Below, one piece after another: positions 12,957 to 38,100 of a DNA stretch of 64,000 nucleotides. How positions within the stretch are numbered: the stretch's first letter is position 1; each line of letters opens with the position of its first letter. The notes under the pieces are model-generated. The model was not told the origin of the DNA. It worked only from the letters and a program-made list of their open reading frames with translations, and ran no database searches. The DNA is from a virus. A program made the position numbers and the translations under genes. The DNA is taken from IMG/VR virus record IMGVR_UViG_2802429064_000003; one strand, given 5' to 3'.

Positions 12957-13910
12957 CTATCGAGCGGCGGCATTGTCGGAAACTGCTGCCGAGTCCCTCG
13001 CGCGCTCTTCTGCGCGCTGCAGCAGGCGCCAGATTCGGCCGGCGTAGGCGTCCTTGGTGATCGGTGGATCGGCGTTGGCTGCAAGCTCGCTCATTCTGGC
13101 TTCCGGGTTCTCCAGGCGTAGTCGCGCCGCCTCTGCCAGCTGTGGTGGCACGTCATCGCCGAGGATTCGGAGCGCACGCCCCACTGATTCGGCTTGGTCG
13201 TGTGCCGCCTGGATGAACCTGGATCTGTTGGCAGCCTCGAGGTTCTCGACGCGCAGCGATTCGCGGTGCGTGCTCATGAGGGTGTGCGCAGCTTCGGGTG
13301 CTCCCACGGCTATGAGGAATCTACCTATCTCCGGGGTTTTGCGAATCTCGAATACATCGACAGATGCTCCGTCGCGGGTGTATTCGCGCATCTGAGTCTG
13401 TACTCCGTGGCGGCGGGCGAACCCACCGAGTGCCATCGCCGCTGGGGCAGTCGGGCACACAACCTCGAGGCGCGGTCGGCGCAGCTCGTGGGTGATGATC
13501 TGTCCGCGTGCCAAGAACGCACCGCGAAGTGCGGCTGCCGCGTCAGCGCGTGTGCCGGCGACCACCGTCGGCGCCATCCCTACCACCGGTCGACCCGACG
13601 GGCTGAGCAGGCCCACCTGCACCGCTAGGTTGTGGGCGCGATGTATCTGGCGCACCTTGAAGGTTCCCGCCGAGAGCTCGAACGCGCGCGGCGCCGCATC
13701 GAAGAGCTTGGTGATCTCGTTGCGCAAGAACACCGCGGCTTCGCGCGTATCGAGCTCGACGTCGATCCAGCAGCGGCGGCCCTCACTGAAAAACCCGCCG
13801 CCGAAGCGCAGCATCGCTGAGACCTGCGCACGTCTGGTCGAAGGCTTGTCGTGGACGGACGGAAGTACACGATTCAGTTCGTATTTGACCTGTTGCGTCA
13901 GTGGATTCAC
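12957..13910 (-). CDS. WhiA-like DNA-binding protein (degenerate LAGLIDADG scaffold plus C-terminal HTH), paralog 1
   Basis: N-terminus VKYELNRV...RAQVSAMLRFGGG and C-terminal DPPITKDAYAGRIWRLLQRAEE match WhiA signature regions. Confidence 0.6.
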   Translation of the reverse strand: MNPLTQQVKYELNRVLPSVHDKPSTRRAQVSAMLRFGGGFFSEGRRCWIDVELDTREAAVFLRNEITKLFDAAPRAFELSAGTFKVRQIHRAHNLAVQVGLLSPSGRPVVGMAPTVVAGTRADAAAALRGAFLARGQIITHELRRPRLEVVCPTAPAAMALGGFARRHGVQTQMREYTRDGASVDVFEIRKTPEIGRFLIAVGAPEAAHTLMSTHRESLRVENLEAANRSRFIQAAHDQAESVGRALRILGDDVPPQLAEAARLRLENPEARMSELAANADPPITKDAYAGRIWRLLQRAEERARDSAAVSDNAAAR

Positions 13911-15809: not shown

Positions 15810-16805
15810 TTACGCACCTGTCAGGAGTCGGACGGCCCCACCGTCGGGGCGCTCTGAATCGAACTCGTCCTGCTCTTCTCCGGCGGCGCGGCGGTCGGCC
15901 ATGATGAGCAACCGCCGCAACCGGCCTGCGACAGCGTCTTTGGTGATGGGCGGCTGGGCGAGCTGCCCAAGCTCTTCCAGAGATGCCTCGCGGTGATCCA
16001 GGCGAAGCTGTCCGGTGTGCGCCAGGTGCTCGGGTGCTTCTGCCCCCAAAATCGCTAGTGCCTGCTTCACCTTGGCCGCCGTGGCTGCCGCTGCTCGTGC
16101 TGATCTACGCGCGTTGGCGTCATCGAGGTTGACCAGCCGGATTGCGGTCGACTGCATTGCGCGCTGAGCGATTCGCCGCTCCCAGGAGATGCGCGACTCG
16201 TCTGCACCGATTCGGGTCAAGAGCGTTCCGATGCTGTCATGGTCGTGAATCACGACACGGTCGATGCCACGAGCGGTGCGCACCATCGACTGAACACCCA
16301 GCCGGCGCGCGCAGCTGGTCAGCGCGAATGCCACTTCGGGGTTGGGGCAGCTGATCTCCAGCGCGCTGGATCGGCTCGGTCCGATCAATGATCCAGCGAC
16401 CATGAAGGCGCCGCGCCAGGCTGCGGCGACCTCGCCCGGTGATCCGCCGACCACCATCGCGGGTAGCCCGGTGACGGGCCGGCCGCGCAGGTCGATGAGA
16501 CCAGTCTGTAGGGCGAGATCACGCCCACCTTCGCTCACGCGCACCGTGTAACGGGCACCACGGCGCAATCCGGTTTCGCTGTTCACGATCACTACTGCTT
16601 TGTGGCCATACAGTGCGGCGATTTCCCGGCGCAGGTACCGCGCGACGGCACCGGTGCCGACCTCGATGTGCACCGTCAGCCCGGTACGGGAGACACGAAG
16701 CTCACCAGCGAGTCGGACGATAGCTGCGACCTGAACACGCCTGCACCCCTGGTGTATTGATGTGGCGCGACTCAACTCGTCACGCACTTCCTGCGTCATC
16801 GACAT
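15810..16805 (-). CDS. WhiA-like DNA-binding protein, paralog 2
   Basis: MTQEVRDELSR...VAAIVRLAGE at the N-terminus. C-terminal LGQLAQPPITKDAVAGRLRRLLIMADRR closely matches the WhiA C-terminal HTH signature. Confidence 0.6.
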   Translation of the reverse strand: MSMTQEVRDELSRATSIHQGCRRVQVAAIVRLAGELRVSRTGLTVHIEVGTGAVARYLRREIAALYGHKAVVIVNSETGLRRGARYTVRVSEGGRDLALQTGLIDLRGRPVTGLPAMVVGGSPGEVAAAWRGAFMVAGSLIGPSRSSALEISCPNPEVAFALTSCARRLGVQSMVRTARGIDRVVIHDHDSIGTLLTRIGADESRISWERRIAQRAMQSTAIRLVNLDDANARRSARAAAATAAKVKQALAILGAEAPEHLAHTGQLRLDHREASLEELGQLAQPPITKDAVAGRLRRLLIMADRRAAGEEQDEFDSERPDGGAVRLLTGA

Positions 16806-16837
16806 CGGTCCTCCTCCTGCGTTTCGTGGTCGGTCTG

Positions 16838-18811
16838 TCAAGCTGCGGTTTCAACGGCGCCGGGGCGCTGGAAGGCCGGGAGCCACTTCTCGGCTTGGGC
16901 GAGTGCGATCAGGTCGCTGAGGTCACGGCGGTCGAGCTGGCCGGCGTCGGGGACTCCCAATTGCGACGCGAAGTCGATCTGCGCATCGGAGGACTTTGCG
17001 CGGGGGAGATCACGCATGTGATCGGGAAAGATATTCTGCGCCAGCGCGTCTGCCTCTGCCAGGCTCAGCCCTTGCAGGTAGCACCGGGGACCCGGTTCGG
17101 TCCACTGCCCATCGAGGCCGACCCAGAACATGCGGTGCACCGTGCTGTCGAAGAATCCGAAGGCCCAATCACGGCCCGCGACGGTCCCCGCGACACCACG
17201 CATATCGGCGAGCATCAGTACGCCTTTGTGGCCGTTGGCGCGGTACACCGAGCGCACGAGGCCCCGAGGGTGGTGTACCCAGCGGATGGTGGAGGTGCGC
17301 TGCGACCAGCTGGAGTCGCCTCGCCGCTGTTTTCCGGCGGCTAGGACGTCGCCGGTAACCGGATCGAAAGTCCGCAGCGGATCTACCCGGTGCAGGTCGC
17401 ATTCACAACCGCAACGGCACAGTCCGAAGGTCAGCGTGCATGTGCATGTGCAGGGGACACTGGACACGGGGTCGCTGGCTGGGCCTGACTCAGACGACTC
17501 GTTCGCACACGTGCAGTTGCATTCACAACCTATTCCGGTGCAGGAGAAGTCGCACTCGTCACTTGTGCAGGGCTGCTGGCAGAAGCAACCGAACCCGTCT
17601 TCGTCGCTCTCCGGTTTCTCGCGGTGTTCGGGGTCCAGGCGGGTCTTGACGATCAGCCCGAGGGATCCGGCGCCCACGAGGTCCACGACGAGAGCGGTGT
17701 CTTTGACGGTTCCGTCTTCGAAGGTGTGTGGCCGCAGTGCGCGCCCTACACATTGGACAAGCCTGGACTGGCTGCGCGTCGGTCTGGCCAGCACGACCGC
17801 TTCGCAGCGAGGGAAGTCTGCTCCCTCGGTGAGCACGTCGACCGTCACCAGCACCTGGGTGCTCCCGTGTCGGAATCGGTTGTAAATGCCGTTACGGACG
17901 CGGGTTTTGGTCTCTCCGACGACCACTTCGGCGGACACGCCTTGTTCGACAAGGGACTTGGCTAGTTGCTCGCAGTGCAACAACGAAGCGCCAAAGACGA
18001 TGGATGAGCGGCCCTCGGTGCGTGTCAACACCGCCTCGACAGTGGCGTTTAGCGTGGTCTCTCGCATCATCGCCTCTTCGGCGACCTCGTCGGAGATGTC
18101 TCCGCCACTACCGGAGGACAGCTTCGAGACATCAAGTTCCGGGAGTTCAACGGTCACGCCTTCTGGCGCGATCAAGAAGCCGTTTTCGATGGCCCAGTTG
18201 ATGTCCCGCTCGAAAACCACTTCTTCCCAGATGGTCCTCAAGGCGGGCTCGTCCCTGCTCGGGGCGTGGCGGATCATCGTCGCGGTGAATCCGGCGCGGC
18301 GCGCGCCCAGAGCAGTGAAGTGGTCGAGCACCTTGCGGTAGGTTCGGGCGGGCGCGTGGTGGGCCTCGTCGACGATGACGAGGTCGCGGTGTCCGATTCT
18401 GGTTAGGGCCGCCTCAGTCTGTAGTGATTGCACTGTGGCCGAGACAATCTGAGCAGTTGGGTCATCGCGATTGCCTCCTCCGATCAGCGAGGGGACGGGG
18501 CCGGCCGGGTTCACCGCTGAGACGGCAATGGCCATCTGCTTGATCAGTTCGTCGCGGTGGGCCATCAGCAGCACCCGGCCGCTGTTGGTCACCTCACGGC
18601 GCGCCAGCTCTGCGATGACGGTCGATTTTCCCGTCCCGGTCGGCAGCACGACCGCCGGTCCCACGACGCCACGGTTGTAGGCAGCGCATACCGCGTCGGC
18701 GGCTTCGATCTGATACTCGCGCAGTGGGCGTGGCTCGTTGGTTGCAGGGGCTGCGACAGGGAAAGCCATCTGCTCTTGATCTGCGGCGGGAGCCAAGTCG
18801 GTGACTGTCAT
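16838..18811 (-). CDS. Superfamily-2 DEAD/DEAH-type DNA helicase (ResIII-like) with a Cys-rich central segment
   Basis: Walker A VLPTGTGKST, motif II VIVDEAHHAP, a helicase C-terminal domain, then CFCQQPCTSDECDFSCTGIGCECNCTC. Confidence 0.75.
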   Translation of the reverse strand: MTVTDLAPAADQEQMAFPVAAPATNEPRPLREYQIEAADAVCAAYNRGVVGPAVVLPTGTGKSTVIAELARREVTNSGRVLLMAHRDELIKQMAIAVSAVNPAGPVPSLIGGGNRDDPTAQIVSATVQSLQTEAALTRIGHRDLVIVDEAHHAPARTYRKVLDHFTALGARRAGFTATMIRHAPSRDEPALRTIWEEVVFERDINWAIENGFLIAPEGVTVELPELDVSKLSSGSGGDISDEVAEEAMMRETTLNATVEAVLTRTEGRSSIVFGASLLHCEQLAKSLVEQGVSAEVVVGETKTRVRNGIYNRFRHGSTQVLVTVDVLTEGADFPRCEAVVLARPTRSQSRLVQCVGRALRPHTFEDGTVKDTALVVDLVGAGSLGLIVKTRLDPEHREKPESDEDGFGCFCQQPCTSDECDFSCTGIGCECNCTCANESSESGPASDPVSSVPCTCTCTLTFGLCRCGCECDLHRVDPLRTFDPVTGDVLAAGKQRRGDSSWSQRTSTIRWVHHPRGLVRSVYRANGHKGVLMLADMRGVAGTVAGRDWAFGFFDSTVHRMFWVGLDGQWTEPGPRCYLQGLSLAEADALAQNIFPDHMRDLPRAKSSDAQIDFASQLGVPDAGQLDRRDLSDLIALAQAEKWLPAFQRPGAVETAA

Positions 18812-23067: not shown

Positions 23068-25863
23068 TTGACTGGCCGCGTGTCCGATGAGCCCAACGTG
23101 CCAGTGGTCGATCTGCCGCGTGTCAACGCGGTCGAGTTCCAGTTCTATGACCACACGGTCGGGGCGCATCTAGTTACCGCTGACAAACAGATGGCGAGGT
23201 GGATCGACGAGCTTCGGTCGGCGCCGCCAGCCGCGGTGGCCGTCGATATCGAGACCCATGGTCTTGACGTCAACAAGTTCACCATCACGTGTGTCACCGT
23301 GGCCTTCGAACTCGGTCAAGACATGGTGGCGCTGTTGTTCGATCCTCTGCGCCGTGCTGAACACCGCGGGATGCTGGCGCGGGTCTTCGACCACGCGGAC
23401 CGCCTGGTCTTCCACGGCGCCAGCTTCGACATCGCTCCGCTGTACGCCCACAGGCTCATGACGAAGGCGCATATTCGCAAGCTCGGCGACACGCTGGTCG
23501 CCGCGCGGATGGTGGGGACCAATGCCAAGGCCGGCCGCACACTCGAAGACCTCGCGAACGTGTTCCGCGTGATGGACGACGATCGCACGTCGATGACCGA
23601 AGTGTTCTCCGCTCGAGGACTTAAGAAGGACGACGGTTGGCGGGGAACTGATATCGACACTCCGACCTATGTAGTGGGTGCGTTGTCCGACACCGTCGCG
23701 ACAAAGCGCCTTTGGGGTGTCCCCGGCGTTAACGGACACGGCATCATGGCCAAGGCCGCTCGCTACCTGACGGCCCCGTCAGCGGGTTTCGGCGGCCATG
23801 GTGTTCTCACAGCCACTGACGCTGAAGCACTCGTCGAGGACATCCAGCGCGTCAACGCGATAGTGCTGGAGCGGACGGCACGCGGATACGCGGTCGACAA
23901 AGAGTTCCCCCAGCGTTTCCTTGAAGAGACTGCTGAGCAGACGCGGGCTGCCGCAACGACTCTCGCTGAGGCGGGAATCCGCCCGGGCAATGCCGCTGAC
24001 CTGGTCAACACCCTCGATGCCCGCGGTCTGCTGCACCAGCAATGGCCGCGTACCGACACAGGCCGCCTGAAAGCCGATAAGAAGGCCTTGGAGGTCTTCA
24101 CCGGTGAGCACATCAGTGACGCGCTGAAGAACCCGCTGGTGATGGCGCACCGTGCTGTTTTCGACAACGAGAAGGACCGCGGCTATGTCGAGAAGGTGGT
24201 CGAAAATGCAGGCCCCACAGGGCGCCTACATCCAGAAATCAAGATTTTGGGCGCCAGCGCCACCGGCCGCATGTGCCTGCCCGAGAATCAGCGGCTGCTG
24301 ACCCGCCGGGGCATCGTGTCTGTGAACGAGATCCGGACCGGCGATCGAACCCTGGATGCAGACGGGCGCTGGACGACGGTGCGGGCGGTGCACCGATACA
24401 GCGATGCGCCGCTTCGCCGTTACACACTCGATGATGGAATCGAACTGATTTGTACACCCGAGCACCGCTGGGTTACCGAGAACACGGCCGGTAAGCGCAA
24501 GGTTCAGCCTCTTGACCGTGCGCGGCAATCCGACCACCTACGGCTCACGCCGCCTATTACTCCCGGGGTCTGCGGAGGCGGGAACTCCATGACCGCTCCG
24601 CAGCACGCCGCGTACACCATCGGGCGTGTCACTGTTCAGCTTGCGCGACAACGCACCGGCGAGTTGTCCGATGCTCTGTGCGGTCCAGCCGAGACGCGGC
24701 GCGCGACGGTGACTAGCCTGCGTGAGCGCTGGCAGACCGAAGGTGAAACCTGCTGGGTACCCGAGCATGCGCCACGAGACACCGCGCTGCACTCGGTGTG
24801 CGACAAGTCTCTCGATGAGCTTTGGAACATGCTGGAGGGTGCGAGCCACTACGCCACAAACGTCAGTCACGCTGGTGTCACCGTGCTGCCCACACCCAAT
24901 AGACGCTACGCCGAGGCTTTCGCGCTGGCGGGATATCGTCTCGGTCTGCGATCCCTGATCTTTGACGCGCCTGCAGGGGCCGCCGTCGTGCTACATCGAG
25001 GGCGCTCCAGCCTGGCCAACATGGTTGTGAGTGATGCCGGAGAAGGCGATGTGTGGTGTGTGACAACTGATTCGGGCACATTCACCGCATGGGGCGAACA
25101 TGGCCCGTACCTGACGGGCAACAGTGCGAGCAAGCCGGAAATTCAACAGTTTCCCAAACTGGCACGTGGAGTCATCGTCGCTGATTCGGGTGCCGAGGGC
25201 TGGATTTCGGCGGACTGGAAATCGATCGAACCCGTGGTGCTGGCGACTGCGGCCGGAGACAGGCAGTTCATCTCCGACATGCGCGCCGGCATGGATCCGT
25301 ACGAGCCGGTGGGGCAAGCAGCCGGTATTGACCGCAAGCTTGCCAAGCGAAAGATGCTTGCGGACATGTACGGGCAGGGGCTCAAAGCCGCTTCGCTGCA
25401 ATATGGTTGGTCACTGGATCAAGCTCGGTTCGTTCAGAACACGATCCGCGGATCGCTGCCGATTCTGTACAAGCTGATCGACGCACTCAAGGCGCAGTCG
25501 CAACGATTCGGGCACGTGACCACGCTTACTGGCAGGGTGGTCGATCAGAAGTTCAGCTTCTACGAGGGCGGACGTCTGGTGAGCGATGTGGCACAACGCA
25601 TTGCGCCCAATCACTTCTGCCAAGGCTCGGCGCTGGACATCATGCACTACGCGATTCTCGAATTGGATCGCCGCGGGCTATCTGATCACGTCCACCTATG
25701 GATGCACGACGAGATCGTGGCGGACAAGGAGATCGCCGAGGAGTTGGCGGAAGTCATGGCCACGCCGCCCCCGTTCCTTGAAGCGGTGGCGCAGTACCAC
25801 GGTATCGAGGCGTTCTTGGCCGTTGACGTCAATGAGATGGGCAGCCGATGGGAGTACGTGTGA
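23068..25863 (+). CDS. polA: Family A DNA polymerase (Pol I-like, 3-prime to 5-prime exonuclease plus polymerase domains) interrupted by an intein
   Basis: Exo motifs VDIETHGL and [11 protein letters not shown]. Polymerase motif A region TGRM|C...N|[11 protein letters not shown] is split by a 283-aa insertion. Motif C region LWMHDEIV. Confidence 0.8.
24274..25122 (+). other. Intein (283 aa) inserted in polymerase motif A (TGR|intein|S..PxxQxxP)
   Basis: Starts with Cys in a block A-like [20 protein letters not shown]. Block B is ICTPEHRW. Ends ...[24 protein letters not shown] followed by +1 Ser. The penultimate residue is Gly rather than His, so splicing competence is uncertain. Confidence 0.65.
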
Positions 25864-27109: not shown

Positions 27110-27409
27110 TTACTGCCCGGTCATCTTGCCGCCGGCGACGCTGTGGTCGTAACCGATCGTCTCGTTGATGGCGCCCTGTGTCGAGGTCCGGCAATGCTCG
27201 ACGACACTGTGAACGCTGGTGATCGCCGAGTTCTGCTCACGCGAGAAGTCGGTGGCGGTGTCCATGCCAACGCCCTTAACGGAGCCCGCAAGCTGCTGGT
27301 ATGCCTGAAGCTGCCGGCCCGCGGCTTCGTCGAGGATCTTCAGATCCGTGTCGAGCTTGTGGACGTCGCCCTGGGCTCCGGGGATGTCGAGGTGAAGTTG
27401 CTTGGTCAT
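27110..27409 (-). CDS. WXG100/ESAT-6-like small helical protein (degenerate WXG)
   Basis: 99 aa. MTKQL...QGDV...LAGSVKGVG... has a layout resembling EsxA. AAAGGA RBS. Confidence 0.55.
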   Translation of the reverse strand: MTKQLHLDIPGAQGDVHKLDTDLKILDEAAGRQLQAYQQLAGSVKGVGMDTATDFSREQNSAITSVHSVVEHCRTSTQGAINETIGYDHSVAGGKMTGQ

Positions 27410-27447
27410 GGTTTAGGTCCTTTCCTGAGTCGGTTGTCCGAGGCCGA

Positions 27448-27756
27448 TTACGCTCGCTGCACCGCTTGGGCGCCGCTGGCCTGGCGCTCCAGCTGGACCC
27501 GGATCACTTCACGCGTGCCGGCTACAGCGGCGTCCGCCCGGTTAAGGACCTTCAGCAGCTGGGGGCTGGACTCACTCTCAAACTTGCCCTGGAACGCGTC
27601 CATGGTGTCCGAGATGTAGCTGTGGGCCTGCAGATCGCCAATGGTGTTGCCGATCCGTCCCAGTGCCTGGCGCATAGTGTCGGTCTCGTTCTGCAGGTTG
27701 TCGCAGATCTTGAGTGCGTCTTCGGGAGCGATCGCAACGCTGCCGCTTGTACCCAT
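27448..27756 (-). CDS. WXG100/CFP-10-like small helical protein
   Basis: About 100 aa with a pattern resembling EsxB (DAFQGKFES...VIRVQLERQA). Pairs with the previous gene. Confidence 0.5.
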   Translation of the reverse strand: MGTSGSVAIAPEDALKICDNLQNETDTMRQALGRIGNTIGDLQAHSYISDTMDAFQGKFESESSPQLLKVLNRADAAVAGTREVIRVQLERQASGAQAVQRA

Positions 27757-27819
27757 GTTTTCTCCGATGGTCGTAGCCGATGGGTGATTCCAAGGCAGAT
27801 GGTAGCGCAAAAATCCGCG

Positions 27820-29190
27820 CTAAGCCCCTCTGAAGGCATTGCTGAGCGCATCGATGCCGTTTTTGATGCCATCGATGTTGCCGGATTTGAACGTGATGCG
27901 TTTGAACATGCCCGAGCCGCTTGGGTATGAGGCGATAATTCCCCGGCCTCGCATGAAGGCCAAGGCCAGAGCGCCGGGCTCGCCTCGTGACACATCGACA
28001 TCACTTGTGCTGACCGTCACTGTCGCGAGCGCGTGGGTTGTGCACCCCGCGATTTCCGCAATTGCTGCCTGAGCTCCTGCGGGCGTCTTGGCTGCTTTCA
28101 GCACGTTGCGGGCTGCCTTGCGGGCACGCTCACGTACCGCATCGGCTTCGGCACGAATCTGGTCGTCAGCGTCCGGCTCGGGTTCGCTGTCGAAGAGTTT
28201 CGAGGCATCCGAGTCCGAGTGGAGTTGATCGACCACAGCCCCCGGCAGGACGATCGGGGTTTTGAGCGGGTAGGCCGGCCATTGGCCTTCAGGGTCCAAG
28301 AGGTCAAGAACAGCAGCAGCGGCGTCGGCGCTGGCTCCATCGCGGCGCAGTCGGCGGCTGAACACCACGGTGGTGTTGTTGATCAGCGCTGAGACCACTT
28401 CGCGCTTGCCCACGCCGATCACGAAAGTCACACGGGGAACATCACGTACCGCGGCCTGAACGCCGTACGGCTTCAATTCGGCAGGAACCTCTACAGGCGC
28501 CCGTCGCTGTGCGTAGAGAAGCACCGTGCAGTACACAGTCAGTTCGGCGTGACCTGTCACTGCGTCGAACATCTGCTTGGCCTCGTCGGTCAAGTGGCCG
28601 TGTTCGTCGAGGGCCTGCCACGCCGTGAGGTCGTGACTAATCTGCGCCTCTGAGGTGGATAGATGCGGAAAAGTCGGCCCCAACTCGATCGGGATCTGGC
28701 GCACCATCGACTTGGCAGCCAGCCAATGCCAGTGGGAGACCGTGAAGTACGGTGACGTCTCGGTCACCGGTGTGACGGTGTTGTCAGCAGTGAGCCAGCT
28801 GTTGATGCTGCGATAGGGCGCGTCAGCTGGGGCCTTGTCACGTCCCGGAACCAGCGCACGCATCGCAGCGCGCATGGCGTCGGAGACTTTGATGGTGCCG
28901 TCAGGGTTCATGCGAATATCGGCCCCGGCAGACTCGGCGATCGGCGCCATCTCTGGATAGGCGGTCAAGGCCGCCTGGATGCGCGCTTGAACCGTGTCTT
29001 TGGGCCTATCCGCCTCGGTGGGCCGAGCATGGCCGTCTTCGTTTGTGTCCTGGGCAGATTCACCACGACTGTCTCCGAACTCCGACAGCGGTGGATCTTG
29101 CTGTGCTAGCGCATCTGACGTGGGTGGCTGTTCGTCGGTTGTGGTGCTCAGTCCAGATTCGAGGATCGCCTGAAGTTGCTCATTGATCAC
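27820..29190 (-). CDS. Hypothetical protein (456 aa) with an acidic N-terminus; weak resemblance to secretion-associated chaperones, unverified
   Basis: Long ORF with good periodicity. No firm motif. Confidence 0.5.
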   Translation of the reverse strand: MINEQLQAILESGLSTTTDEQPPTSDALAQQDPPLSEFGDSRGESAQDTNEDGHARPTEADRPKDTVQARIQAALTAYPEMAPIAESAGADIRMNPDGTIKVSDAMRAAMRALVPGRDKAPADAPYRSINSWLTADNTVTPVTETSPYFTVSHWHWLAAKSMVRQIPIELGPTFPHLSTSEAQISHDLTAWQALDEHGHLTDEAKQMFDAVTGHAELTVYCTVLLYAQRRAPVEVPAELKPYGVQAAVRDVPRVTFVIGVGKREVVSALINNTTVVFSRRLRRDGASADAAAAVLDLLDPEGQWPAYPLKTPIVLPGAVVDQLHSDSDASKLFDSEPEPDADDQIRAEADAVRERARKAARNVLKAAKTPAGAQAAIAEIAGCTTHALATVTVSTSDVDVSRGEPGALALAFMRGRGIIASYPSGSGMFKRITFKSGNIDGIKNGIDALSNAFRGA

Positions 29191-29237
29191 GGGGCGCAGG
29201 GTGCCCGGACACGGGCCGAATTATGGCCAGAGGCGCG

Positions 29238-31475
29238 TCATCCCAATGCGTGCCCTTGGTAGTTCACCTGTTGGGGCATCGGGCCCGTGGGTGCTACCTC
29301 TGGTGCGGCTGCCGGCGGTGCGGGTGGTGCAGAGGGTTGCACCGGCGGAGGCGGGGGAGGAGTGGGCGCGACTTGTGGTGGTGCTGCCGCCGCGGGCTCG
29401 GCCGGTGTTGCGGCGGGCGCCGGCGCCGCGTTCGGTACGGCCGGCGCGGGATTCGGCGGAAGCGGTGTCATGTCCCTAGCCGCAGAGTCAGACGGAGCAG
29501 GTGCCGGATTGGCCACCGGTGCTTCGCCCTTGGCGTCTGGCAGCGGTGCATCATCGGGGAGATCCGGAAGCGGGATCTCGGAGATGAAACCGTTGTCGCC
29601 GAGCACCTCTGCGAGGTCCTCGATCAATCCAGTCGAAGTCATCACCAGCCCCTCACCGAGGTACATTCCGGACTGATAGGCACCGATCACCGCGTCACCC
29701 ACGTGAACGTCTTCGGGGTCGATGGGATCGCCCAGGGAGGTCAGATCCATCCCGGAGGCCTTCGCAGCATCGAGCACCGAACAAGGCTTGTCTGCGGTGG
29801 CGTCGGCCATGTTCAGCATCATCTCGCCCAGGCGGGGGTCCGGGATGTTCTTCACCTGCACGTTGTGTCCGTTGGCCGGAACGGCGAGATCGAACGGCTT
29901 GATCGACTTCTTGGACAGGGGGACAGCGTCTTTGTCGACTTTCCCCGTGTGTTCCTTGTCCACTGGCTTCCCGGTGGCATCGAGCTGGTGCGGACGCGCG
30001 TCACTGCCCGGCATGCCCACAGACTTCGGCGTGGCCGGCCCGGGCGGGCTGAATGTCGCTGTGGTCGCCGCTGAGCGATCCTTGCCCGCGGCCTTCGCCG
30101 CCGCGGTGTCCAGACCGGTGTGGCGCTGATTGTCCGGAGCTGCGCTTTTCAATGACTTGAGCAGCTCTTCGGGAACCTTCCCTGCCTGTTGTGCGGCTTG
30201 TTGGGCAGCCTGATTGAGGGGTTGAGCGGCTTGTTGTGCGGCTTGTTGAGCGGGCGCGATAGCGCCCGGAAGCTGTTGACCGAGTCCTCCGGTGCCCAGT
30301 GCAGAGAGCAGTTTGGACAGATCGGAAGTGGCGCCCTTGCCCGCTCCGGCTGGAGTCGAAGCCCCGGGCCGACCGCCAGGTGCGGCGGCAGAGGATCCGG
30401 GGCGACCAGCCGGCGTAGTCCCATGCGCGGTGCCATTGTCTGCGCCGGCCACTCCAGCACTAATCAGCTCCGGTGCCACGGCTGCCGGGACGGTGATCTG
30501 TTTGGCGATGGCAGCGATTGCGGCGCCGTGTCGTGTCACTTCGTCGGTCTTGCTCAGCGTGGTCGCTACGGGGGTAATCTTTACGAACTCGCCGCGCGAG
30601 CTGTAGGCGGTGACGTCTGCCTTGTCCACTGCTTCGTCGGTGACATGGATGCCTTGAGGGAGGCTCGCGTTCATCTTCGCGCGTGCCACTTCTCTGGCGG
30701 TGTTGACGATGTCTTTTCGTTTCGCCAGCTCCTCGCCGCGCAGCTGCTGGAAACTGTCGTTTGCCGCGATCCCGTAGCGCGCAATCTGATTGTGCAGATC
30801 GCTCGACGACTCGGCGTCGGTGGCCAGCGTGGTGAGCGAAGCTCGGATCTTCACCAGCTGCTGTTCGATCAGTTGCTCACCCGAACCCTCGAATGCCTTC
30901 AGCAGAGTGTCGATTGCGATGCGCCATTGCGGGATCAGGTTCTTGGCCAGATCGTACGTTGCGCCCAGAGAGGAGATGTTCGTGCCAGAGCCGGGGAAAC
31001 GCGCGCCGTCCGGAAACCAGGCTTGAGCTGGGTCGACGACAAACCAGGACTGATTGAGTGCCTCGATACCTGCGTCGAGCGCGTTGAGCGCGGTGTTGTC
31101 GCTCGGATCCAATGCGGGGAGAACTGCGTTGCCCTGGAGCCATTTACGTTCACCGTCCGGTGGTCCCGACAGCAGCGTCGAGATTGCCGGTGTGGTCCCA
31201 GCTGGCGCCGGCGAACTCGAGTCTGGTGCTCTGCGGTCAGTGTGGGATCCCGCGTCCTTGAGCCTCGCGACCAGTATGGCTGGATCCAGGCGCTTGCCAG
31301 CGACGAGTTCGGAACTGAGTTCGGGTGCGAGGTCCCGCTTCCAGGTGCCCGCACCGTACTTCGCATCGACAGCGTCTTCGATTTGCCTGAGGCACACCGG
31401 CGCCCACAGTCTGCCGGTTGGTTGGGTCAGGACTGCGTTGTAGCGGTCGATCGCTTGCTCGATGGGGTCGGTCAT
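29238..31475 (-). CDS. Large hypothetical protein (745 aa) with an extended Pro/Ala-rich C-terminal tail; possible secreted substrate or effector
   Basis: Helical N-terminal region, long APAPA tracts, C-terminal PPPPPPVQPSAPPAPPAAAPEV. A segment resembling NlpC/P60 (PCSVLD...HVGDAVIG...SGMYLGEGLVM) is only suggestive. Confidence 0.55.
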   Translation of the reverse strand: MTDPIEQAIDRYNAVLTQPTGRLWAPVCLRQIEDAVDAKYGAGTWKRDLAPELSSELVAGKRLDPAILVARLKDAGSHTDRRAPDSSSPAPAGTTPAISTLLSGPPDGERKWLQGNAVLPALDPSDNTALNALDAGIEALNQSWFVVDPAQAWFPDGARFPGSGTNISSLGATYDLAKNLIPQWRIAIDTLLKAFEGSGEQLIEQQLVKIRASLTTLATDAESSSDLHNQIARYGIAANDSFQQLRGEELAKRKDIVNTAREVARAKMNASLPQGIHVTDEAVDKADVTAYSSRGEFVKITPVATTLSKTDEVTRHGAAIAAIAKQITVPAAVAPELISAGVAGADNGTAHGTTPAGRPGSSAAAPGGRPGASTPAGAGKGATSDLSKLLSALGTGGLGQQLPGAIAPAQQAAQQAAQPLNQAAQQAAQQAGKVPEELLKSLKSAAPDNQRHTGLDTAAAKAAGKDRSAATTATFSPPGPATPKSVGMPGSDARPHQLDATGKPVDKEHTGKVDKDAVPLSKKSIKPFDLAVPANGHNVQVKNIPDPRLGEMMLNMADATADKPCSVLDAAKASGMDLTSLGDPIDPEDVHVGDAVIGAYQSGMYLGEGLVMTSTGLIEDLAEVLGDNGFISEIPLPDLPDDAPLPDAKGEAPVANPAPAPSDSAARDMTPLPPNPAPAVPNAAPAPAATPAEPAAAAPPQVAPTPPPPPPVQPSAPPAPPAAAPEVAPTGPMPQQVNYQGHALG

Positions 31476-31511
31476 ATGCGCTCCACTCGTGGCAGGGACT
31501 GGGCCAGAAAC

Positions 31512-32339
31512 TCAGTAGCCGACACCGTGGCCGACGCCGCGCGCCATGAAGGTGACCAAACCGGTGCCGGTGTGCAGATCAACGTGGTAGCGCACGGCGA
31601 TGTAGCGCCATGCCGCGGCGATATTGGCCACCGGGTCGTAGATGAACGTGGAGGTGCCTGGGGCATGATTGGCTGCGAAAGTCCCTGGGACAGTCTGCAT
31701 GAGGCCGCGCGAGCTTCCAGCTGGTGCGCCGTCAGGCTGCCGGGCGCCCCAGGCGTTGGAATCTCCGCGGTTCACGGCGTTGGTTGCGCCGCCGGATTCC
31801 CCGCCCATGATCGTGCGTGTGGCGGTGTCGAATTGCCCAAATAGCCGTGGGTTTACGCCGGCGGCCTGCAACCCGGCCGAGATGTCCGCATCGGTGACAT
31901 GGGGGACAGGGTGTGCGGTGTAGATGATCTTGGACTTATCGATCGCGGCTGCCTCGGTGACAGGTCTGGTCGAAGCAACCGGCACGAGCACCAGGGGACG
32001 TGACGGAGCAGCGCCGGGTATCGGTTCCTCTACCGTGATCGGTTCTTCGTCGCGTGCTGCATCGTCGACTGGCGGTGCTTCGTCGACAGGTTCGGCGGCG
32101 GTCTCTTCGTCTGCCGCCTCGATGACCGGCTCAGGCGCAGACTCTTCGTCGACGAGATGGTGCTCGACAATCGGTTCGGTTGCCGGTTCGGTTCCGCAAT
32201 CCGGCATATCGCAGGTGATTGTCGCCACATCTGAAGTCGGATCCGATGCGGGGTCAGCATGCGCGACGCCGCCTCCGATCGCAGCGATTGCCGCCGCGGC
32301 GACCATCGCCGACAGAACTGGACGCTTACCTGTGGACAT
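31512..32339 (-). CDS. Secreted lytic transglycosylase (SLT domain) protein
   Basis: Signal peptide, acidic linker, then GGESGGATNAVNRGDSNAWGARQPDGAPAGSSRGLMQTVPGTF, the SLT catalytic motif region. Confidence 0.6.
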   Translation of the reverse strand: MSTGKRPVLSAMVAAAAIAAIGGGVAHADPASDPTSDVATITCDMPDCGTEPATEPIVEHHLVDEESAPEPVIEAADEETAAEPVDEAPPVDDAARDEEPITVEEPIPGAAPSRPLVLVPVASTRPVTEAAAIDKSKIIYTAHPVPHVTDADISAGLQAAGVNPRLFGQFDTATRTIMGGESGGATNAVNRGDSNAWGARQPDGAPAGSSRGLMQTVPGTFAANHAPGTSTFIYDPVANIAAAWRYIAVRYHVDLHTGTGLVTFMARGVGHGVGY

Positions 32340-32536
32340 AAGTCGGTCTCCTGAAAGATCTCGGTCGAGATGACGCGATATTGCGGCGGAGAGTAGGGCC
32401 CGCAGACCTGGCGCCCGGGCTGCGGCGCGTGCGGCCCGGGGAGTTCTGTTACCGCGTGTGATACCCGCGAATCAAAAGCGGCATCTGTGTATTCTGCGCG
32501 CGTTGGAACGCAGAGATTCGCGAGCGAGGAGAGGCC

Positions 32537-33370
32537 ATGAGATCTGCCAGCTCCCGGCGCGGGAGAAGGTGTGCCGTGCGCGCCGCAGGTTGGGCGGTCG
32601 CGCTCGTACTTGCAACGGCAACCAGCTGGGTCGCAGAGCCGACGGCCAATGCCGAACCGGCGCCCGGCAGTGATGCGTGGATATCGATCGCCGGTGTCCG
32701 CGGCTCACGGCCGCCGGTGGCATTCACTGCCGCCGCGTACCCACGACCCGGGGTGAGTTTGGTCCAGCAGTTCGATCCCACCGAGGTGTCTGAATGCACC
32801 ATTTCATGGCCGATTGTCAGCACTCGCAGCGACATCGGGTACCTGACAGCCGGGCACTGCGATCGCAAAGAAGGTGCGCCCCTGTGGATGTACACCGACG
32901 CTGAAGGCGCTGGTCGCCTGAACCTCTCACCGCTGCAGAACGCCGAACGCGGAGTCGATGACGCCGGCCGCAGGTATGACGCGGCCCTGTTCTTCTTGTC
33001 TCCAGCACAACAAGAAGCGGCCTACGGAACCGTGATAAACGACGGGATACGGCTGCGTGGCGTGATGTCGGTCCCGTCGGCCAAGGCTCTTCCTGCGGGA
33101 ACTCCGGTGTGCATGAATGGTTCTCGTTCAGGTCTGACATGCGGGCCGCTGATCGCTGCTGGAGACGATCAGCTCGAGTGGGGTGGTGCCGCAGTACAGG
33201 GGGACTCGGGTGCGCCGGTGTTCGTCGTCAACAGCAGCGGCGACGCACAGGCGATCGGCATGCTGCACGGCGGGCCGAGCGATACCGACAATTTCGCGAC
33301 CTACCTGGCGCCGGTCTTGGAGCGGCTCAAGGTGCGGCTGATTGTCGACGACAGGAAGGGCATCTCGTGA
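32537..33370 (+). CDS. Secreted trypsin-like serine protease (S1 family)
   Basis: Signal peptide. TAGHC (catalytic His) and GDSGAPVF (catalytic Ser) motifs. Confidence 0.65.
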   Translation: MRSASSRRGRRCAVRAAGWAVALVLATATSWVAEPTANAEPAPGSDAWISIAGVRGSRPPVAFTAAAYPRPGVSLVQQFDPTEVSECTISWPIVSTRSDIGYLTAGHCDRKEGAPLWMYTDAEGAGRLNLSPLQNAERGVDDAGRRYDAALFFLSPAQQEAAYGTVINDGIRLRGVMSVPSAKALPAGTPVCMNGSRSGLTCGPLIAAGDDQLEWGGAAVQGDSGAPVFVVNSSGDAQAIGMLHGGPSDTDNFATYLAPVLERLKVRLIVDDRKGIS

Positions 33371-34078: not shown

Positions 34079-34099
34079 TAACAGCAAGTGGGAGTGCGG

Positions 34100-35104
34100 A
34101 TGACATCGACCTTGTGCCTGGAATCGAGGCCAACTGGGCTGGTTCCGAGCGAAGATGTGAGGGCAGAGCCCTCGTCAGATGCGCGCGAAGACGCGCGCTC
34201 GGCGAAGTTCAGCCGAGATGCCGTCCGGTACCTCCTGGAGTACATCGCTGCGAATGGTCACGCGCATATCCCGCGTGACTATGTGTGCGCAGATGGCTTC
34301 CAACTCGGTGCACGGTCCAACAACTGGCGGCGGCGAAAGATCAGTCCGGAGTTCATAGCGAGGCTTGACCGCGTGAAGCTCTGGCGGTGGACTGCCGAAG
34401 AAGCGCGATGGGACGCCCGCTTTGCGCTACTAACGGAATACATACAGGAACACGGTGACGCACGTCCGCCCGCCAGATGGCGCTCGGTTGATGGATTCCG
34501 TCTCGGCGGCTGGGTTGCCCGTCAGCGCGCCTTGTATCGTGAAGGTCATCTCGATCCGGATCGCACGGCTCGGTTAGAGGAGTGCCCCGGTTGGGTCTGG
34601 GAGCACCCGACGAACTTGCGATGGGCCGAGGCTTACAAACTGCTCTGCCGATACGTGGACGAGCATGGGACTGCAGCTGTTCCCTTGTCATACACCCACT
34701 CCGAGGGATACAGGCTCGGGGATTGGGCCGCCGCCCAGCGGTACTACTTCAAGACCGGAAGTATGAGCAAGGAACGAGCCCAGCTGCTCGAATCGCAGCC
34801 AGGGTGGTCTTGGACACGAGAATCAGCACGCTCAGATGAGCAGTGGGAGTGTGGATTCAATCATCTGCTCTGGCTTGTCGGACAGACAGGCTTCGCTGAT
34901 GTCCCCGCTGGGTATCGCACTCCAGATGGATTCCGGCTGGGACCATGGGCGTACTCGCAAAGGTCCCAGCAGCGCGACGGAACGCTAGATCCAGAAAGAG
35001 CTGCACGCCTCAACGCGATACCCGGATGGACCTGGCACATCGAGCCGAGCCGCAAAATTGCTCCACCGTATTCCACGCTGGTGTCCGCAGGAGCTTCGTC
35101 GTGA
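34100..35104 (+). CDS. Helicase-associated (HA) domain repeat protein (4-5 HA repeats, no helicase core)
   Basis: Repeated W..W...F..L..Y...HGH..VP......GF.LG.W...QR......L...R...L...PGW.W units. GGGAGTG RBS. Confidence 0.6.
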   Translation: MTSTLCLESRPTGLVPSEDVRAEPSSDAREDARSAKFSRDAVRYLLEYIAANGHAHIPRDYVCADGFQLGARSNNWRRRKISPEFIARLDRVKLWRWTAEEARWDARFALLTEYIQEHGDARPPARWRSVDGFRLGGWVARQRALYREGHLDPDRTARLEECPGWVWEHPTNLRWAEAYKLLCRYVDEHGTAAVPLSYTHSEGYRLGDWAAAQRYYFKTGSMSKERAQLLESQPGWSWTRESARSDEQWECGFNHLLWLVGQTGFADVPAGYRTPDGFRLGPWAYSQRSQQRDGTLDPERAARLNAIPGWTWHIEPSRKIAPPYSTLVSAGASS

Positions 35105-38100
35105 AAGGGCATGTCAAGGCCACCACCGTGCCCGCTCCAAAACTGCGTGTGAGGCCACCAAATCCACTTCGCCAACACCAGATCGACGCCCTCACGGCTG
35201 TGCAGACCGACGTGGCGCGTCAACAGCTCATCATGGCGTGCGGAACAGGGAAGACACTGACCGGCCAGCATGCCGTGGCCAAGCTACTGGGCGAGCAACC
35301 CGGAACAGTCCTGGTTCTGGTTCCGACACTTAGCCTGTTGGAGCAGACGTTCCAGGCATGGGCCGCGTATGCTCCGTTCGGATTCGACTCGATCGCCGTA
35401 TGCTCTAAGTTGACCCCTGCTGAAAAGCGAAGCGTCGGTACAGAGGATGACACTGATACCGGTCAGCTTGCGTTGGCAGCCACAACCGAACCAGCGGAGC
35501 TCGCGGACTTCCTGGCTGGCCAAGAACGGACGACGCGGGTCGTGTTCGGCACCTACCAGTCACTCGACACAGTGATCGCTGCCCATGCCGATCACGGCGC
35601 AGAGCCGTGGAGCGTGGTCGTCTGCGATGAAGCGCATCGCACCGCAGGAGCCAAGGCCAAGCCGTTCGCGCGAGCGCTTCACGATGAGTTCGTGCCGGCG
35701 CGCCGGCGACTGTTCCTGACAGCAACGCCGCGTGTGCATACCGTGTCGGAGAAGGAATCAGGGTCGGAGAAATCCACGTTGCTGGCGTCGATGGATGACG
35801 AAACGCTCTACGGCAAGCAGGTTTATACCCTGTCGGTGGCCGAAGCGATTGAGAAGAACATTCTGTCGCAGTACCGCGTCGCGGTAATCGGTGTAGAGGA
35901 TGCGGAATTACAAGCCGCGGTGCGGACGCTCGAAACGGTGAAGGTAGCAGGAAGCGACCTGTCGCTTGATCACGTCGCATCGATCGTGGCGCTGTCGAAG
36001 GCGGCGCAGCAATACGGACTGCAGGCGATCATCGCCTTTTTCAACAGCATCAAGTCCAGCAAGAGTTTCCGTGACGCCTTCAACACGGTTCACGAAAGTC
36101 GCGTTGGTGAGCACCTTGCCGAAGGGGTTGCCGAACACATCGACGGCGCCATGAAATTAGAGAAACGCCGTGCTGCTCTGACACGGCTAGCGCAGAATCG
36201 CGACAATGGTTTCTACCTCGTATCTAACGCACGGTGCTTGTCTGAGGGTATTGACGTACCGGTTTTGGACGCAGTCTTCTTCGGGGAGCCTCGCAGCAGC
36301 CAGATCGAGGTCGTGCAGTGCGTCGGCCGCGCGATCCGCAAGAACCCCCGTCACGACAATCCGGCGCTGATTGTGATTGGGGTGCGCATCGGGGCCGGTG
36401 AGGACATCGAAGCGGCAGTCGACGAGTCGCAGTTCAAGAAGATTCGACAGGTTATCGCGGCGTTGTCCGACCACGACCCACGCATCGCCGAGGCCGCCCG
36501 CGTTCTGGCCCGAAGCGGAGGATCCAACCCGGACGATTCGGTCCACGAGAAAACCGACTGGGCCAAAGATCTTCTTGCATTGGAGGTCCCGGAGGCACTG
36601 CTGCATAACGGGTTCGGGCTGCGGATGCTGGACGTTAGAAATCGAGACTGGGAGAAGCGGTTCGCGCAAGTTTCTCAACACGCTCAACGTACCGGAAACG
36701 TGATTTTTGCAAATACGGACCCATGCGGCAGCTGGATAAACAAGCAGCGCATGAAATTCCGTGAAGGAAGACTACCAGTGGAACGTAGTAGGCGGCTTGA
36801 GTCCCTGCCTGGATGGAGCTGGGATGTACTTACTGATCAATGGGAGATGCGCTTTGTAGAAGTTTCTCGACGGGCTCAACGTGTTGGAACCGTGGCGTTT
36901 CCACACGGAAGCCCGCAGAGTGCGTGGGTGACCAATCAGCGCAAAGCGTTCAGTGACGGAAGGCTACCAGTGGAACGTAGTAGGCGGCTTGAGTCCCTGC
37001 CTGGATGGAGCTGGGATGTACTTACTGATCAATGGGAGATGCGATTCGCGGAGGCCTCTCAACGCGCTCAACATGTTGGCAACCTGGCAGTTTCGAGAAA
37101 CCAGCCACTAGGTAAATGGATAGCTAATCAGCGTCGGCGTTTCCACACTGGTTCACTTTGTGCTGAACGAATCAAGCGGCTTGAGTCGCTGCCAGGGTGG
37201 AGCTGGGATGTACTTACTGATCGGTGGGAGAAGATGTTTGTGGAGGTTTCTAGACATGCTCACCTCAGGGGCAACGTGACATTTCCAAGCAAAGATCCGC
37301 GAGGTACTTGGGTAACTAAACAGCGCAAATCCTTCCGCGCCGGCACGCTGTCTGCCGAACGCATCAAGCGTCTAGAGGCTCTGGCCGGCTGGAGTTGGGA
37401 TGTGATCTCGGCTCAGTGGGAGAAGATGTTTGTGGAGGTTTCTAGACATGCTCACCTCAGGGGCAACGTGACATTTCCAAGCAAAGATCCTCGGCAGGTG
37501 TGGGTATCCCAGCAGCGGACAACGCACCTCCGTGCGGGCACGTTGTCTCTTGAACGCATCAAGCGGCTTGAGTCGCTGCCCGGGTGGAGTTGGGATGTGA
37601 TCTCGGCTCAGTGGGAGCAGCGGTTTGCGGAGGTTTCTAGACATGCTCACCTCACGGGCAACGTGACATTTCCAAGCAACGATCCTCGGATGCTATGGGT
37701 ATACACGCAGCGGAAGTCTTTTCAGGTCAACAAGCTTTCTGCTGAACGAATTAAGCGGCTTGAGTCGCTGCCCGGGTGGAGTTGGGATGTACTCACCGAT
37801 CAATGGGAGCAGATGTTCGAGGTGATTCACCACCATTCCCGTCTAACCGGGCGGATTGCGTTTGATAGAAGGGACACACGCACGTACTGGATTCAGGTTC
37901 AGCGCCAACGTTTCCGTGCGGGCACCTTGTCTCCTGAACGCATCAAGCGTCTAGAGGCTCTGTCCGGTTGGACCTGGGATGTTCTCGCCGACCAGTGGGA
38001 GCAAAGTTACGCCGAAGTATGTCGTTACGCTGAGCGCACCGGCAACGTGACTTTTCCGGACAGGAACCCCCTGCGAAGCTGGGTAAGTCGGCAGCGCAGA

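Follow-up and report, generated by a model that had tools for sequence, protein, structure and literature searches.

What are two small helical proteins, a large proline-rich protein and two exported wall-active enzymes doing side by side on DNA that is filed as viral? The DNA in question is a stretch of 64,000 nucleotides, the IMG/VR record IMGVR_UViG_2802429064_000003, which was analysed at its full length and is called the window below; the cluster lies at 27110-33370 and consists of six genes, here named A to F. From the letters alone, the original prediction had taken it for a phage-borne group of two WXG100-like proteins, two large Pro/Ala-rich proteins, a secreted SLT transglycosylase and a secreted S1 protease, acting as a virion-associated or prophage-encoded effector or in remodelling of the cell envelope. 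Our analysis favors a different reading, to which we give a probability of roughly 0.68: F / E-D-C-B-A would be the module that contributes substrates, a chaperone and wall-remodelling enzymes to an ESX-like (type VII) secretion system borne by a mobile element. The six genes are the following.

Gene A, 27110-27409, minus strand, 99 amino acids (aa): small helical protein, conserved partner gene of B
Gene B, 27448-27756, minus strand, 102 aa: divergent WXG100-family protein by its family profile, with Y-I-S replacing W-x-G
Gene C, 27820-29190, minus strand, 456 aa: predicted EspG-fold chaperone with an N-terminal extension
Gene D, 29238-31475, minus strand, 745 aa: orphan protein, putative secreted substrate
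Gene E, 31512-32339, minus strand, 275 aa: predicted Sec-exported lytic transglycosylase, SLT domain at residues 176-251
Gene F, 32537-33370, plus strand, 277 aa: predicted exported S1 (chymotrypsin-fold) serine protease, divergent from E-D-C-B-A

All six open reading frames (ORFs) were found within 27110-33370 and have a GC content at third codon positions of 0.69-0.83, a coding-type codon bias. N-terminal signal peptides were detected in E and F, while A, B, C and D contain neither signal peptides nor transmembrane or hydrophobic segments. The link to type VII secretion that had been drawn at first sight is supported by the EspG-like chaperone C, the WXG100 relative B and EccC-type ATPases on the same element.

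Protein C has the fold of EspG chaperones

No Pfam or NCBIfam model matched C at an E-value of 0.1. When residues 149-329 were compared with plasmids using tblastn, six mycobacterial megaplasmids yielded matches to genes annotated as 'ESX secretion-associated protein EspG', with 31-39% identity over ~180 residues (E 3e-14 to 7e-9). An AlphaFold2 model built on a 47-sequence alignment reached a predicted local distance difference test score (pLDDT) of 79 overall and >85 in the core. In a Foldseek search of this model against the PDB, ranks 1-18 were all EspG1, EspG3 or EspG5 with a probability of 1.0 (E 2.5e-11 to 9e-7, target-based template modelling score 0.39-0.68), and rank 19 had an E-value of 0.06. 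Upstream of the matching region lies an N-terminal extension of ~130 residues that is disordered or helical. Judged by these matches and by the model, C is an EspG-fold T7SS (type VII secretion system) chaperone with an extra N-terminal region. It contains 6.8% Pro and does not qualify as one of the two large Pro/Ala-rich proteins initially proposed, a description that fits D. PE/PPE genes were not found in the module.

Proteins A and B, a small helical pair

The ORF containing B reaches back to a TTG at 27810; because its homologues are 99-102 aa long, we placed the start at the ATG at 27756. The family is rare, as an exhaustive search of 1.84 billion representative proteins with a hidden Markov model yielded about eleven clusters of 99-101 aa. 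A profile of the family alignment (19 sequences) was compared with PDB sequences and returned EsxA of S. aureus (2vs0) as the top match (E 8.6e-4, residues 1-91 on 1-92), followed by EsxB proteins; the nine best small-protein matches were all Esx proteins, in register and over the full length. Profile-profile comparison with hhalign gave a probability of 86% for the B family against EsxA (E 4.7e-6, 83 columns), and the Pfam model WXG100 (PF06013) was matched by 5 of the 19 members, with a best E-value of 6.9e-5. Because of the EsxA-topped profile, the hhalign score and these Pfam matches, B is classified, at the level of sequence, as a divergent WXG100 protein. At the position aligned with W-x-G, the family has Y-I/V-S with a 95% conserved Tyr and neither Trp nor Gly.

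For A, the evidence is far weaker. Using an alignment of ten sequences, the profile of the A family found no Esx protein among PDB sequences, and the Pfam hints were sporadic and weak (LXG with E 0.0065 and WXG100 with E 0.042, in one of 10 members each). The window copies of A and of B, taken alone, had no WXG100 match in Pfam or NCBIfam. A conserved G-Y-D motif is present at the C-terminus of A, and the homologues nearest to the window copy are M. abscessus proteins that are 99% identical and located on contigs of up to 840 kb. In the nine loci in which the ORFs were read, A and B form an adjacent pair of ~100 aa each. A is best described as a conserved, predicted helical partner gene of B, whose WXG100 membership is unproven. 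Of the two WXG100-like proteins initially proposed, B is upheld by its family profile, whereas similarity of A to this family was undetectable. The degenerate state of the WXG positions was correctly recognized in both, as B has Y-I-S where EsxA has W-E-G, and A has K-G-V-G at the predicted turn.

Type VII secretion ATPases on the same element

Another candidate component of type VII secretion was identified 6 kb from the module.

EccC-EccA fusion ATPase, 39382-41442, minus strand, 686 aa, soluble: FtsK/SpoIIIE (EccC-type) and EccA/CbbX-type AAA domains

Among NCBIfam models, this protein matched T7SS_EccC_a at residues 78-349 (E 6.8e-38) and T7SS_EccA at residues 401-677 (E 3.8e-51); the Pfam matches were FtsK_SpoIIIE, AAA and AAA_lid_6, and no hydrophobic segment was detected. 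Orthologues were found 4-8 kb from F in four further loci (L002 and L009-L011) and also in Tsukamurella, those of Tsukamurella and M. dioxanotrophicus being longer (~970-1006 aa) with two FtsK-like domains. To our knowledge, an EccC-EccA fusion has not been described before. The fusion is a candidate motor or adaptor for the module.

Further parts of such a machine were found at a larger distance. M. abscessus contigs carry an EccCa/EccCb gene (1425 aa) ~7.5 kb left of the window start. The Tsukamurella counterpart of the element encodes EccB (294 bits compared with a cut-off of 154 bits), EccCa-like and EccCb-like ATPases and a HerA/DUF87 ATPase, with EccB, EccCa and EccCb ~50 kb from the module.

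Protein D, an orphan Pro/Ala-rich protein

D consists of 17% Ala and 11% Pro overall, with 35% Pro in residues 641-736. An alignment of seven orthologues showed a moderately conserved N-terminal domain (residues 106-330, 33-56% identity) that contains the motif A-F-E/K-G-S/T-G-E, a low-complexity linker rich in Ala, Gly and Gln, a C-terminal domain (residues 466-640) with 62-70% identity, and a variable Pro-rich tail. The protein ends with a nine-residue motif (…Y-Q/E-G-H/R-A-L-G, 67-78% identity) whose Y, G and A-L-G do not vary. The C-terminal domain and this tail motif are the most conserved parts of D. None of the seven orthologues had a Pfam match, searches of NCBIfam and PHROG were likewise negative, and neither conserved domain matched a PDB sequence.

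Two assignments suggested by visual inspection were rejected. The likeness of the N-terminal domain to WXG100 or PPE proteins (AFEGSGE/AWGGSGSE) found no support in hhalign, in Pfam or in profile searches of the PDB, and the hhalign probability against a PPE protein was 0.1%. Classification of the C-terminal domain as an NlpC/P60 (C40) peptidase received an hhalign probability of 3% and no Pfam match in the seven orthologues, and the positions of the catalytic Cys and His in the alignment made by eye (GDAVIG…SGMYLGDG) are not conserved.

A stand-alone paralogue of D with 825 aa is present on 'plasmid 5' of Tsukamurella (L018, 7552-10029). It shares 42% identity with D in the C-terminal domain; its neighbors are HEPN and AAA ATPase genes, and no A, B or C genes are nearby.

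The exported enzymes E and F

The claim of a secreted SLT transglycosylase held true for E. The protein scored 24.6 bits against the Pfam model SLT (PF01464; gathering cut-off 21.3 bits, E 2e-5), carries the motifs GGESGG (E-S) and GLMQ(T) in its translation, and starts with the signal peptide MSTGKRPVLSAMVAAAAIAAIGGGVAHA. E also matched PHROG families, namely SLT segments of phage tape-measure proteins. The second predicted enzyme, a secreted S1 protease, was confirmed as well. The translation of F contains TAGHC, DAALF and GDSGAP, i.e., intact motifs of the His-Asp-Ser catalytic triad, downstream of an Arg-rich signal peptide. Its match to the NCBIfam model Rv1815_serprot (E 8.8e-11) is below the equivalog cut-off, no Pfam match was obtained at E 0.1, and the Tsukamurella orthologue bears the annotation 'S1 family peptidase'. 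By these motifs and matches, E is a predicted Sec-type SLT transglycosylase and F a predicted Sec-type S1 serine protease. Both enzymes fit the remodelling of the cell envelope that had been put forward as one function of the cluster.

Organization and conservation of the module

The co-directional genes E, D, C, B and A are separated by 36, 47, 63 and 38 nt, most of them are preceded by GGAG-type ribosome-binding sites, and they probably form a single operon. The spacer between the divergent genes E and F measures 197 nt. A scan for terminator-like sites, which were no more numerous than expected from shuffled sequences, yielded one repeat in this spacer.

Inverted repeat, 32414-32440, strand-less: GC-rich, 11 bp, perfect-looking, CCCGGGCTGCGGCGCGTGCGGCCCGGG

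This repeat may be an operator or a binding site for a regulator.

The block F / E-D-C-B-A with F in divergent orientation is conserved in 11 loci, which come from Mycobacteroides, Mycolicibacterium, Mycobacterium and Tsukamurella. In 10 of these loci, F adjoins the module on the opposite strand, and the remaining one (L012) ends just upstream of C. The E gene is missing from the M. koreense loci. Across the 11 loci, the neighbors of the block are PolA, a primase-like gene, a helicase and WhiA, and the module holds a backbone position beside replication genes in every locus.

A phage origin of the host element is not supported

The module was compared with 50,697 phage genomes, and no match was obtained, either with DNA (megablast) or with protein (tblastn of C); no relative was found in IMG/VR. 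Positions 1-25000 of the window also had no match in the phage genomes. In the right 25 kb, phage similarity is confined to the last 813 bp (63188-64000), a minus-strand ORF with four transmembrane segments that is 86.6% identical to gene 78 of the M. abscessus prophage prophiGD05-1, a single accessory gene adjoining transposase genes. Phage structural PHROG families were absent from the window genes and from the large ORFs of the Tsukamurella element, and the ~120 kb Tsukamurella counterpart has no phage structural annotation. The label 'phage-borne' is not supported by these searches. The same is true of the wider framing as a phage, virion or prophage effector, as no phage genes were detected and the relatives are chromosomal islands beside a tyrosine integrase.

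The genes of the window include NAMPT, NUDIX, two WhiA paralogues, helicases with helicase-associated domains, PolA, a primase-like protein, exonucleases, RNase H, an SPFH protein, a second FtsK-like ATPase and a tyrosine integrase. The integrase gene (60949-62157, minus strand) belongs to this element or to a neighboring one. The module is located ~28 kb from it and adjoins the PolA, primase-like, helicase and WhiA genes, not an attachment junction.

The only similar annotated record is 'plasmid 13' of Tsukamurella tyrosinosolvens NCTC13231 (NZ_LR134455.1, L017), which is fully syntenic. It contains metabolic genes, a tyrosine integrase at 120.9 kb and then the ~120 kb element. The genes at 107-122 kb are ordinary metabolic genes of the chromosomal type, and the record probably represents a contig of the chromosome that bears a plasmid label. 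We rejected a true plasmid in Tsukamurella and consider this copy an integrated element, since chromosomal-type genes run up to the tyrosine integrase and the element is found only beyond it. The block beside PolA, helicase and WhiA is also present in M. dioxanotrophicus, M. koreense, Mycolicibacterium canariasense, M. austroafricanum, M. syngnathidarum and others, and some of the loci sit in chromosomes of 4-7.6 Mb. The best reading is that a large integrative element of Mycobacteriales, and not a phage, harbors the module; searches of the literature turned up no description of this element.

A module of an element-borne type VII secretion system

If these parts work together, the small helical targeting-partner set would consist of B, probably with the helical hairpin protein A, while C would keep the large signal-less protein D competent for secretion. 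For the logic of such a partner pair, EatA-TapA1-TapA2 of M. abscessus is a direct precedent within the same species. The EccC-type ATPases of the element, including the soluble EccC-EccA fusion, could recognize D and/or A by their conserved C-terminal tails, and the complex might be exported through the element's own EccB/EccC machine or through ESX-3 or ESX-4 of the host. Beyond the membrane, D would then act on the envelope through its conserved C-terminal domain, alongside E and F, and the whole would serve a function of the element such as cell-to-cell transfer or establishment.

A number of results weigh against this reading. EccB was not found within the 64-kb window, nor was it seen for M. 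abscessus. EccD, EccE and mycosin (subtilisin) were missing from the scanned ORFs of the window, and EccD, EccE and MycP from the annotated Tsukamurella element. The canonical WxG motif is not conserved in A, B or D, and a motif scan of the three families revealed no conserved Tyr with Asp/Glu at +4, i.e., no conserved YxxxD/E secretion signal as had been considered in the original prediction. The hhalign probabilities for the A family were 0.1% against EsxA, 4% against the B family and 0.1% against a PE-like protein. The AlphaFold2 model of A has two long helices and a turn at K-G-V-G, but with low confidence (pLDDT 64), and the fold search with this model returned generic hairpins as sole matches. 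Finally, D is no more than a putative substrate, as it has no significant likeness to WXG100, PPE or NlpC/P60 proteins.

Several known systems resemble the module in part. In M. tuberculosis, the accessory genes of ESX-1 are arranged in the order espE-espF-espG1-espH, and EspK, EspI and EspB are Ala/Pro-rich. The likeness to the module, which concerns gene order and composition only, lies in the combination of a large helical or low-complexity substrate, a ~100-aa partner and EspG. A second resemblance is to the plasmid-borne ESX (T7SSa) loci of pRAW-type plasmids, M. intracellulare and M. avium plasmids, pCBMA213_1 and JS623 plasmids. These loci share with the module an EspG that is 31-39% identical to C, WXG100 genes together with EccC/EccB parts on a mobile replicon, and a wall hydrolase near espG (a C40 peptidase in L005); moreover, pCBMA213_1 carries PolA, RNase H and FtsK (PMC7478629). 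In contrast to these loci, a PE/PPE pair, EccD, EccE and mycosin were not found here, the protease of the module is of the S1 and not of the subtilisin type, neither WxG nor YxxxD/E occurs in the small proteins, C is extended by 130 residues at its N-terminus and D is an orphan. In its integrated state, the element lies beside a tyrosine integrase, and relaxase or type IV secretion system (T4SS) genes were not seen.

According to work cited within PMC8092301 and PMC7478629, ESX-dependent plasmid conjugation occurs in mycobacteria, and a role in transfer is suggested by analogy with it. A transfer-like function of the element is further favored because the module is a conserved part of the backbone and the C-terminal domain of D is its most conserved part. 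The module is also unlike prophage toxin cassettes in its fixed backbone position, its conserved D C-terminus, its lack of an immunity gene and its position away from an att (attachment) junction. For these reasons it probably serves the element in transfer or establishment and is not a polymorphic toxin, which is the least certain step of the argument.

Alternative explanations

The alternative that fares best, although we consider it unlikely, is an interbacterial or host-directed effector module, in which D would be a T7SS-exported, envelope-targeting effector like the arabinanase EatA, directed against competitors or host cells. Its genetic logic is that of EatA-TapA1-TapA2 of M. abscessus ESX-4, in which a WXG100-like partner pair binds the helical N-domain of a T7SS cargo (bioRxiv 10.64898/2026.08.24.746431). 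There, as in the Bacillota LXG toxins with their Lap partners, two ~100-aa helical proteins are found beside a large signal-less protein, the cargo has a helical N-terminal region, and the partners are specific to the co-encoded cargo. The co-location of the wall-active enzymes E and F and the occurrence of a D-like paralogue alone elsewhere in the Tsukamurella genome are also in line with an effector. Unlike EatA-TapA1-TapA2 and the LXG toxins, the module has an EspG-type chaperone and a non-polymorphic cargo C-terminus. What speaks against an effector is that no immunity-like gene adjoins D, the highly conserved C-terminal domain of D belongs to no recognizable catalytic family, and the module is a fixed feature of the backbone by the replication genes in every locus.

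A prophage polymorphic toxin-immunity (PT-Imm) cassette or a virion-associated effector, with D as a WXG-tagged toxin exported via host ESX-3/ESX-4 and A and B as ESAT-6-like helpers, would come closer to the original prediction; we regard it as very improbable. Cassettes of toxin, immunity and WXG-100 genes are common in M. abscessus prophages (PMC8092301), and they have in common with the module the species, WXG-type small proteins next to a larger exported protein, and a mobile element. The 99% identity of the A homologues to M. abscessus proteins, the resemblance of the F-E-G-S-G motif of D to W-G-G-S-G and the prophiGD05-1 match in the last 813 bp of the window point in the same direction. 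Yet the latter match is a lone accessory gene by transposase genes, and the module itself matched no phage by DNA, by protein or in IMG/VR and is accompanied by no phage structural PHROG family in the window genes or the large Tsukamurella ORFs. While PT-Imm cassettes sit at the att junction (PMC8092301), the module lies beside replication genes, far from the integrase. It has an EspG-like gene and no candidate immunity gene, the gene downstream of D being C, and instead of a variable toxin C-terminus, the C-terminal domain of D is its most conserved one, the opposite of a polymorphic toxin.

That A and B are unrelated to secretion, i.e., generic coiled-coil proteins of the element (e.g., for replication or partition) whose Esx likeness stems from helical composition, would agree with the missing WXG100 matches of the window copies, the generic hairpins matched by the A fold and the adjacent primase-like and PolA genes, but is hardly tenable given the full-length Esx register of the nine best small-protein matches of the B profile, its hhalign probability of 86%, the EspG-fold gene C directly upstream and the EccC-type ATPases on the same element, a triple co-occurrence beyond chance expectation.

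Other genes of the element

The PolA gene (23068-25863, plus strand, 931 aa) contains an intein-like insertion of ~237 residues, roughly at 442-678, which begins with C-L-P-E-N and ends with H-G-P-Y-L-T-G-N-S. This insertion is absent from the Tsukamurella and M. koreense orthologues (639-641 aa) and present in that of M. dioxanotrophicus (919 aa). An NAD-salvage cluster with NAMPT and NUDIX is located at 10-2285 of the window (plus strand) and at 5553-10654 of L014; outside the window, these two genes are preceded by phosphoribosyltransferase-like, Macro domain and RyR domain genes. The cluster resembles the NAD-reconstitution gene sets that phages use in counter-defence.

The two paralogues of WhiA, a regulator of sporulation and cell division, are encoded on the minus strand at 12957-13910 and 15810-16841, and WhiA is also present in the Tsukamurella and M. 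koreense counterparts. The plus-strand regions 34088-38205 and 42562-45885 encode helicases and stand-alone proteins with many tandem helicase-associated (HA, PF03457) repeats. One HA-repeat ORF of 1086 aa shows about nine near-identical units ending in …RLESLPGWSWDVL.

Implications

Taken together, our results suggest that the module is an ESX-like accessory and substrate set with non-canonical motifs on an undescribed integrative element. This corrects a tempting mis-annotation, as the module is not one of the prophage toxin cassettes described for M. abscessus. It is missed entirely by standard annotation: each of A, B, C and D carries the label 'hypothetical', and none of them triggers a Pfam or NCBIfam model.

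The type VII systems known in M. abscessus are only ESX-3 and ESX-4. A more far-reaching proposal, which we offer tentatively and at well below even odds, is that this species carries a third, stripped-down type VII system on undescribed, self-replicating integrative elements of ~100 kb that are shared across Mycobacteriales. Composed of EccB/EccC, the EccC-EccA fusion, an extended EspG, a WxG-less WXG100 protein and an orphan cargo whose C-terminal signal would be new, such a system might breach the envelope for the element's own transfer, which would amount to T7SS-driven conjugation without a recognizable relaxase or T4SS.

If the assignment of the module to an ESX-like system is true, it would provide a compact test case for the recognition of T7SS substrates without WxG and YxxxD/E, and a test of the chaperone role of EspG without a PE/PPE pair. 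D would be a candidate envelope-active protein with a conserved C-terminal domain outside the known families. For clinical M. abscessus isolates and several environmental mycobacteria, it would mean an additional ESX-like route of export, encoded on a mobile element.

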